From NCBI GenBank assembly GCA_016784445.1, contig JADHUR010000004.1, forward strand, positions 1 through 37,889: 37,889 nt of DNA, given 5' to 3'. Every line of letters begins with the position of its first letter. The stretch's first letter is position 1. The notes under the pieces were generated by a model. The model was not told where the DNA came from. It saw only the letters and a program-made list of their open reading frames with translations, and did not search any database. The position numbers and the translations under genes were made by a program. Source of the stretch: Patescibacteria group bacterium. Its GTDB lineage: Bacteria; Patescibacteriota; Patescibacteriia; UBA1558. Shown here one piece after another: positions 12,458 through 12,688 of the stretch.

Positions 12458-12688
12458 TGGATGCGATCGGATTCGAACCAATGACCTCACTCCTGGGTTT
12501 TAACACCATAATCTTAATGATTACCATGATTACAATTACTTAACCCTATAATGCTCACGCACTACTTTGAAGAGGTTACTCTCCTCAACTCTACACCTGT
12601 TTAGGCATCGCTTTCTTAAAATAAGCTACAAAGTGGGAGTAATTACGATCAATTCAGGAAAGTGCTCTACCAACTGAGCTACGCACCC
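12458..12688 (-). ncRNA. 231-nt tRNA-like RNA with a structured insert of about 160 nt in the anticodon arm and a G3.U70/A73 acceptor
   Basis: 5' half GGGTGCG TA GCTC AGTTGGTA GAGC A CTTTCCTG; 3' half CAGGAGTG AGGTC ATTGG TTCGAAT CCGAT CGCATCC A; the two halves pair; the insert folds into nested helices. Confidence 0.75.

Follow-up and report, generated by a model that had tools for sequence, protein, structure and literature searches.

An interrupted tRNA-like gene, its operon and its orthologue

The window analysed here is the whole of contig JADHUR010000004.1 (37,889 nt) of a Patescibacteria group bacterium (assembly GCA_016784445.1), which is contig C18 of the genome designated G000 (698 kb, 20 contigs, 92.5% complete). 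Its minus strand carries a tRNA-like gene whose cloverleaf is interrupted in the anticodon loop by a folded insert of 160 nt (Table 1). It heads a series of tRNA-like genes with one orientation, three in G000 and four in G001, a closed, single-contig, same-genus genome (Komeilibacteria) that is 98% complete.

Table 1. Features of the tRNA-like operon in the window.
Feature	Positions	Strand	Remarks
Whole interrupted tRNA-like gene (outer cloverleaf and insert)	12458..12688	-	Fold; ARAGORN with introns allowed; G001 orthologue at L013:950-1201
5' half of outer tRNA, positions 1-36	12653..12688	-	Acceptor GGGTGCG, D arm, anticodon-stem strand CTTTC, then C32 U33 G34 A35 A36
Insert, 160 nt, between A36 and G39	12493..12652	-	Rod of imperfect helices leading to a four-way junction
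13-bp inverted-repeat helix GATCGTAATTACT / AGTAATTGTAATC enclosing the inner junction	12528..12650	-	Also in the constrained minimum-energy fold
Inner cloverleaf-like junction	12564..12634	-	By eye; ACTTTG/CAAAGT, TA-GCTT..AAGC, ATGCCT-AAAC-AGGTGT, GAGG-AGAGTAA-CCTC
3' half of outer tRNA, positions 39-73	12458..12492	-	GAGTG, AGGTC, T arm ATTGG-TTCGAAT-CCGAT, CGCATCC, A73
Second member, "odd" tRNA-like gene with 11-nt anticodon loop TTGATTTTGGA	12367..12444	-	55.1 bits; U73 then CAA
Third member, initiator-like tRNA(CAU)	12288..12361	-	60.8 bits; C1 x U72 mismatch, A11:U24, A73 then CAA
Intrinsic-terminator-like hairpin and T run	12255..12283	-	Ends the operon before the YibE/F gene; similar sequence after the G001 operon

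Read along the minus strand from 12688 to 12458, the gene runs GGGTGCG-TA-GCTC-AGTTGGTA-GAGC-A-CTTTC-CUGAA, then the insert, and then GAGTG-AGGTC-ATTGG-TTCGAAT-CCGAT-CGCATCC-A. The two outer halves form all four tRNA stems and the G18G19 / T54-C56 elbow, with the D loop AGTTGGTA and the T loop TTCGAAT, and the acceptor GGGTGCG/CGCATCC presents G1-C72, G2-C71, G3.U70 and A73. The 3' end, with A73 at 12458, continues with CAA and not with CCA. An 8-bp stem closes the insert across the anticodon arm (CTTTCCTG at 12662-12655 with CAGGAGTG at 12495-12488, one U x U mismatch, 159 nt enclosed). Within it, the 13-bp helix pairs 12650-12638 with 12540-12528, including one C x A mismatch and two G.U pairs, and is followed by the helix ACTTTG (12634-12629) with CAAAGT (12569-12564), a GNRA hairpin at 12563-12550 and the hairpin TAATC-ATTAA-GATTA at 12523-12509. 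The rod amounts to ~23 bp of imperfect duplex in G000, and its G001 counterpart is longer. A first-pass annotation, made from the letters alone, had described the gene as a natural tRNA scaffold displaying a multi-helix RNA in its anticodon arm, and every helix and coordinate that it gave is present in the sequence, with the mismatches listed above.

This overall architecture is borne out by folding and by the orthologue in G001. The 231-nt RNA has a predicted minimum of -67.1 kcal/mol (z = -3.36; 0 of 200 shuffles fold as well), and imposing the outer cloverleaf as a constraint costs no energy, since the same minimum is reached. The exact structure of the first-pass annotation lies 14 kcal/mol above this minimum, at -53.4 kcal/mol. 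Taken alone, the insert has z = -2.6 in G000 and -2.5 in G001, against a background of 50 random 158-nt genome windows with a mean of -0.47 and a standard deviation of 1.19.

The interrupted gene is reported neither by ARAGORN in its default mode nor by the Rfam tRNA model. With introns allowed, ARAGORN places a tRNA at 12688..12457 with a 158-nt intron and labels it "tRNA-Gly(gcc) i(35,158)". Under this assignment the gene in G001 would read GGA, and we therefore reject the label. In the 5' register the anticodon is GAA, as first proposed, and the TGAA at positions 33-36 is conserved in G001.

The gene is not an assembly artefact or chimera. Contigs of 14,905, 13,155 and 13,043 nt from three studies (runs X1, X2 and X5, which may include the source sample) span positions 12200-12900 with 0 differences, and an orthologue occupies the syntenic position in G001. 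Short contigs seeming to join the exons at the locus proved to be tRNAs of other organisms and not spliced forms of the gene. No second copy of the insert was found in the G000 genome.

The acceptor of the odd member is Gly-like (G1-C72, C2-G71, G3-C70 and U73, without CCA). Its counterpart in G001 lies at L013:1217-1293 and has the 11-nt loop TTAAGCTCAAA, and the initiator-like member is found there at L013:1391-1464. The G001 operon alone contains an extra Thr(GGU)-like member.

In G001 the orthologue is flanked by the same GT4 glycosyltransferase gene on one side and by the same tRNA-like genes and YibE/F (68% amino-acid identity) on the other. The first 25 of 25 nucleotides of the gene are identical between the two species. 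In contrast, the inserts differ in length (~160 nt in G000, ~180 nt in G001) and have only 7-nt words in common, and the 11-nt loop of the odd member also differs freely. The G001 insert contains a nested cloverleaf scoring 35.5 bits on the tRNA model. In the G000 insert a similar four-way junction, with the same TGTAGCT start, can be recognised by eye.

The stems of the three shared genes have evolved in a way that preserves pairing. Between G000 and G001, 43 of the 63 stem pairs are unchanged, 14 show compensatory changes, 5 have a one-sided change that leaves the pair intact, and a single pair is broken. The outer tRNA of the interrupted gene accounts for 14 unchanged, 3 compensatory, 3 one-sided and 1 broken pairs out of 21; the odd tRNA for 15, 4, 2 and 0, respectively; and the initiator-like tRNA for 14, 7, 0 and 0. 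The outer stems are conserved in the homologue through compensatory change, and the insert sequence is not. These changes occur in rapidly diverging genes. Identity between the species is 78.7% for the initiator-like member, and 12 of 66 positions of the outer exons have changed, compared with a median best-match identity of 97.3% for the canonical tRNAs (n = 41), that is, a divergence about ten times greater. The flanking intergenic DNA aligns poorly, and the exons and the T and D loops are kept. The cloverleaf is thus maintained, with the primary sequence and the anticodon region of two members free to vary, which argues against plain decay.

The operon has a very restricted distribution. 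Searches with the insert against six genomes of the family (BLAST) returned only the self-match, and the whole gene, searched against 86 genomes of the order, matched only by its 5' half, to tRNA-Lys genes (88-91% over 33 nt). A pattern scan of GTDB representative contigs returned one other record only, taken as G001; two pattern scans of JGI metagenome contigs gave 0 and 0 matches, and a scan of viral contigs (IMG/VR) gave 0. In a phage collection only the tRNA-Met-like part was matched, by ordinary tRNA-Met genes. Within the order, the odd tRNA retrieved generic tRNA matches only, and the initiator-like tRNA retrieved no CCA-less cluster from four other genera of the family, where 19 of 19 tRNAs encode CCA. 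Judged by these searches, the operon is specific to one genus among the genomes searched.

The neighbouring genes are ordinary chromosomal ones: YibE/F, parts of an ABC transporter, the GT4 glycosyltransferase, Sua5, NUDIX, RlmN-like, RpoD, DnaG and RecG. Between a conserved hairpin (12964..12947) and the interrupted gene lies an open reading frame of 64 amino acids with a GGAGG ribosome-binding site (12906..12715, minus strand). Pfam gave nothing for it below E 0.07, the Atlas nothing at ≥0.9, and G001 has no relative of it. The segment of ~230 nt that holds it, bordered by TTGTATTGTT (12945..12936) and TTGTATTATT (12705..12696), is absent in G001.

CCA ends, redundancy and a possible role outside translation

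CCA is encoded by 41 of the 43 tRNA genes found by ARAGORN in G000 and by 43 of the 46 found in G001, and the exceptions are exactly the members of this operon. All seven operon genes of the two genomes, the interrupted one included, end in N73-CAA. At loci from other genomes of the order, CCA is encoded in 91 of 91 distinct tRNA genes. The CCA-adding enzyme (PF01743) was found in none of six genomes of the family (G000 to G005, the closed G001 included), in which CCA is present in all canonical tRNA genes examined, and its archaeal counterpart (PF09249) in none of three genomes; as a control, PF01743 is present in four of five genomes from other families of the class. Moreover, each of the two genomes has, at other loci, canonical, CCA-bearing genes for Phe-GAA, Thr-GGU, initiator Met and elongator Met. 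The canonical initiator tRNA of G000 (G000:C7:185141-185216) reads CCCAUAA in its loop, with C33 for the usual U. Since the interrupted gene encodes no CCA and no CCA-adding enzyme was detected, it can probably neither be charged nor serve in translation.

The explanation that we favour, tentatively and somewhat short of calling it probable, is that the gene encodes a tRNA mimic that is neither spliced nor charged, whose anticodon arm contains a decayed cassette and which has been retained, like its operon partners, for a role outside translation. The gene would be a spare, non-decoding pseudo-tRNA with a Phe(GAA)-type cloverleaf as its body. A cassette flanked by inverted repeats, probably carrying its own tRNA, would have entered the anticodon loop before the two known species split, and would since have decayed to a folded rod and junction that evolves fast and measures ~160 nt in G000 and ~180 nt in G001. 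The RNA would be transcribed with its neighbours and its ends cut by the ordinary tRNA-end enzymes, and it would be neither spliced nor aminoacylated. Its tRNA body (acceptor, D and T arms) could then act, as a kind of decoy, by engaging tRNA-binding proteins outside translation. In terms of its predicted structure, the gene is a pseudo-tRNA in the sense that its fold appears to be selected and its decoding and charging features are missing.

Several observations weigh against this interpretation. The main one is that the initiator-like loop CUCAUAA is unchanged despite seven changed stem pairs; in addition, the Thr-like member of G001 is a good tRNA (67.7 bits). Both look like selection for decoding or for recognition by a synthetase, although decoding or charging of the operon members would need an unrecognised route to the CCA end. 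Such a route may exist. Genome G150, of the same class, has at L134:1494-1750 a CCA-less tRNA-Thr(GGU), a tRNA-like gene with a 6-7-bp anticodon stem and the loop TTATTAT, and a Thr-like tRNA with C33; it has no PF01743 match, and this case leaves room for an unrecognised CCA-adding activity in these bacteria. The absence of the enzyme is one seen with Pfam models, in a G000 assembly that is 92.5% complete and in a G001 contig that is 98% complete. The covariation comes from one species pair, as two genomes only hold the gene. The inner junction of the G000 insert, a cloverleaf by eye only, is not recognised by the tRNA covariance model. The nine listed runs in which the sequence occurs come from marine and estuary metagenomes and include no RNA run, which bears on transcription and on the absence of splicing. 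Finally, the insert has no sequence similarity to the tRNA-carrying cassettes of the class described below, and no empty site was found.

The strongest competitor, which seems doubtful, is that the operon is a functionless relic. A CCA-less tRNA set would have arrived by horizontal transfer from a CCA-adding lineage or phage, could never be charged in this host and would be slowly decaying, the insert being junk in a dead gene. The operon genes are indeed redundant, devoid of CCA and limited to one genus, and the two inserts are unalignable and unequal in length. A U28 x U42 mismatch is already present in the outer anticodon stem of G000. The class often shows tRNA duplicates in decay and incomplete tRNA copies (e.g., L130, L137 and L147), and the interrupted tRNA-Ile gene of genome G149 (see below) shows that an outer gene may look intact merely because the insertion is recent. 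Neutral decay, however, should break pairs, and 19 of the 20 stem pairs that changed still pair, 14 of them by changes on both sides. Likewise, the exons and the T and D loops persist amid intergenic DNA that can hardly be aligned, and the operon retains its terminator in both species.

Splicing, cleavage and alanylation as alternatives

A second alternative is that the insert is a genuine self-splicing intron, of a type either undescribed or highly reduced, whose removal would yield an extra GAA tRNA with its 3' end finished by an unrecognised activity. No intron or ribozyme match was obtained in Rfam at E values up to 10, with the window region, the insert alone or the G001 locus as query, and the group I model (RF00028) has no match in the whole G000 genome either. 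The first-pass annotation had seen no group I or group II intron core and had set the gene apart from transfer-messenger RNA (tmRNA) by its full D-stem and the lack of a clear tag frame, and this agrees with the lack of any Rfam match above cut-off. An nhmmer profile built from five tRNA-Thr introns of the class matched only exon parts, in the window and in the G001 locus. Of the group I catalytic core (P7 and R/S-like elements) nothing was recognised, and neither GACT nor AGTC occurs in the insert. The splicing endonuclease (PF01974) was found in none of three genomes and RtcB (PF01139) not in the one searched, and no 3-4-3 bulge-helix-bulge could be seen by eye in the constrained fold.

The possible splice products are also inconsistent, as a canonical 7-nt loop with a purine at 37 cannot be obtained in both species from one and the same splice position. 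If five loop nucleotides come from the 5' side, the loops are CUGAAAG (G000) and UUGAAUG (G001), and with six they become CUGAAUG and UUGAAGG. With seven, the products would be CUGAAUU and UUGAAGU, the cut would follow a U and the insert would finish with a G, and a P1 helix with a U.G pair cannot be drawn for G000.

The failure of Rfam must nevertheless be interpreted cautiously. A pattern search of 401 genomes of the class showed that at least seven of them have a tRNA-Thr(GGU) gene interrupted directly behind U36 by an insert of ~190 nt (loci L126, L143, L144, L145, L155, L161 and L162; genomes G421, G422, G359, G334, G280, G205 and G153). These inserts have in common R/S-like core motifs of group I appearance (CGAACGACTGACAAGGGGAGC ... 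ATATACAGTCTAA). RF00028 reported none of the five inserts of loci L126, L143, L144, L145 and L155 at its gathering threshold (L161 and L162 lay outside the scan set), and none of three (L126, L143 and L145) at E up to 0.01; in two of the scanned loci it does report classical introns, at 78.9 and 55.1 bits. A miss in Rfam is therefore weak evidence in this class, because RF00028 also misses the tRNA-Thr introns of the class. Cases of tRNA-Tyr introns are also present in the class.

The intron interpretation gains from the commonness of tRNA introns in the class, from the apparent selection on the outer cloverleaf and on its anticodon stem, between whose strands the insert lies, from the conserved TGAA at 33-36, and from the seven-nucleotide position, which would fit the group I rule in both species. 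Against it, the conserved core of the tRNA-Thr introns is missing from the insert, nothing is conserved between the two inserts, and the position that follows the group I rule puts U or G at 37 and U at 38, in addition to the lack of a shared canonical splice product. The product would lack CCA in genomes where the CCA-adding enzyme, the endonuclease and RtcB were not found, it would duplicate an existing canonical tRNA-Phe, and the 11-nt loop of the neighbouring gene would be left unexplained. We know of no group I intron as short as this insert, taken at 159 nt. An unknown intron type, as first suggested, is in our judgement unlikely, and a less likely reading than a tRNA mimic.

More doubtful still is that the insert is an intervening sequence cut out without religation. 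RNase III acting on the rod, RNase P and 3' nucleases acting on the nested domain, or both, would leave a two-piece tRNA body held together by pairing. There is precedent, as rRNA intervening sequences are removed by RNase III, and insertions in the rRNA genes of the candidate phyla radiation (CPR) are absent from the RNA. The imperfect duplex of the rod, longer in G001, would offer a substrate, as would the nested domain of G001, which is tRNA-like by the covariance model. The inner domain of G000 is not, and we consider this explanation improbable.

The remaining alternative is an alanine-accepting RNA fused to a tRNA, similar to tmRNA or to a Y RNA. The first-pass annotation had entertained it on the strength of G3.U70 and A73. 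These are also seen in the tRNA-Ala genes of G000, and neither tmRNA nor smpB is found in the G000 assembly. The predicted G3-C70 pair of the only orthologue contradicts this reading, as the Ala identity is not kept, and the possible alanylation fails on the missing CCA and on the distribution of the CCA-adding enzyme, which was not found in six genomes of the family and was found in four of five others of the class. The analogy with tmRNA does not survive either, since G001 holds this gene together with an ordinary smpB-ssrA pair (G001:C1:663638-664466; the ssrA, at 96.4 bits, was missed by ARAGORN and found by Rfam). Because both genes adjoin in G001 and tmRNA scores above cut-off in four of five other genomes of the family, their joint absence from G000 is probably best read as one assembly gap. 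The tmRNA model (RF00023) scores 6.9 bits on the window against a cut-off of 47. YrlA (RF02553) scores 19.4 bits on the window and 23.5 on G001 against a cut-off of 69, with both matches spanning neighbouring tRNAs; the free ends of the gene lie in the acceptor stem, where YrlA would be expected to end in the Ro-binding stem, and the Ro/TROVE protein was found in neither of two genomes. An alanylated, tmRNA-like or Y-RNA-like molecule is thus extremely unlikely, and tmRNA, YrlA, a group II intron, the known small ribozymes, a bulge-helix-bulge intron and the Ala identity are all rejected as readings of the gene.

Possible origin of the insert and relation to known systems

A lead on the origin of the insert comes from another family of the class. 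In G149 (L158:158-402; G149:C3:139057-139301), which the pattern search of the class also recovered, an outer tRNA-Ile(UAU) gene is split inside its anticodon (CUUA|UAC; UA|U) by ~169 nt, consisting of a complete tRNA-Ile(UAU) with CCA between inverted repeats. The inner gene is the sole Ile-UAU among the 47 tRNAs found in that genome. The same insert, with the same ends, is present in a different outer tRNA-Ile(UAU) in G245 (L195), which belongs to another genus than G149. Uninterrupted outer genes, 100% identical to the G149 exons, exist in G425 (L201), G309 (L200) and G473 (L199). The arrangement resembles that of a small mobile cassette, which would invade a tRNA gene and supply its replacement. 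A smaller elaboration of an anticodon arm is seen at L156 (G355:C2, about 7935-8030), where a 95-nt tRNA gene with CCA has ~22 extra nucleotides forming a hairpin extension.

The insert of the window is comparable to the G149/G245 cassette in its inverted repeat, its inner cloverleaf, seen by eye, and its precise placement in the anticodon loop, and in both cases an intact tRNA with that anticodon makes the outer gene redundant. They differ in that the cassette has a complete inner tRNA with CCA and empty sites in relatives, whereas in the window the inner domain is decayed and the outer gene is the conserved part. As sequence similarity is lacking and it is the outer gene that is conserved here, we can only infer a cassette origin for the insert. 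A bolder proposal, which we regard as unlikely, is that CPR bacteria host an undescribed mobile cassette with inverted repeats that carries its own tRNA and targets anticodon loops. The gene of the window would be an ancient copy, with the host tRNA-like gene and its CCA-less partners kept for a non-translation role in a lineage without a CCA-adding enzyme; or else the cassette would be removed from the RNA by a splicing route new to bacteria.

Among known systems, the pseudo-tRNA tRNA-Other of Bacillus cereus, which reportedly does not function in translation and yet has a cellular effect, is similar in being a chromosomal tRNA-shaped gene redundant with the canonical set (PMC3399842). In contrast, the gene of the window has a 160-nt insert in the anticodon loop, belongs to an operon of three to four genes, lacks CCA in a lineage where no CCA-adding enzyme was found, and is known from its sequence alone. 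The trn operon of Anabaena PCC 7120 is also a separate operon of extra tRNAs beside the housekeeping set, some of which are not detected as tRNAs (PMC8421152). In the window, charging looks impossible, the array is tiny and one member is interrupted. Introns are also mentioned for CPR rRNA genes (PMC10714607).

Classical group I introns occur in bacterial tRNA-Leu(UAA), tRNA-fMet, tRNA-Ile(CAU) and tRNA-Arg(CCU), and they resemble the present case in lying in the anticodon loop with the cloverleaf preserved around them. The insert of the window, in contrast, is smaller and has no catalytic-core motif, no match to Rfam or to the class profile, no conservation between orthologues and no consistent splice product. 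Both tmRNA and YrlA likewise join tRNA-like modules to other structured RNA, but the gene of the window does not agree with them in topology, in family models, in partner proteins or in a conserved Ala identity. Full-text literature searches found no description of such a gene or of a tRNA-in-tRNA cassette.

Standard tools miss such genes, as ARAGORN in its default mode is silent on the interrupted gene, and Rfam both on this gene and on the tRNA-Thr introns of the class. The insert and the intact tRNA-in-tRNA cassette may together point to a route for the invasion and replacement of tRNA genes. If expressed, the interrupted gene and its partners would clearly exemplify, in nature, the maintenance of tRNA bodies by selection where cells are unable to supply the CCA end, and the tRNA shape would there serve something other than translation. 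Their retention would be all the more telling in reduced genomes with little spare DNA.

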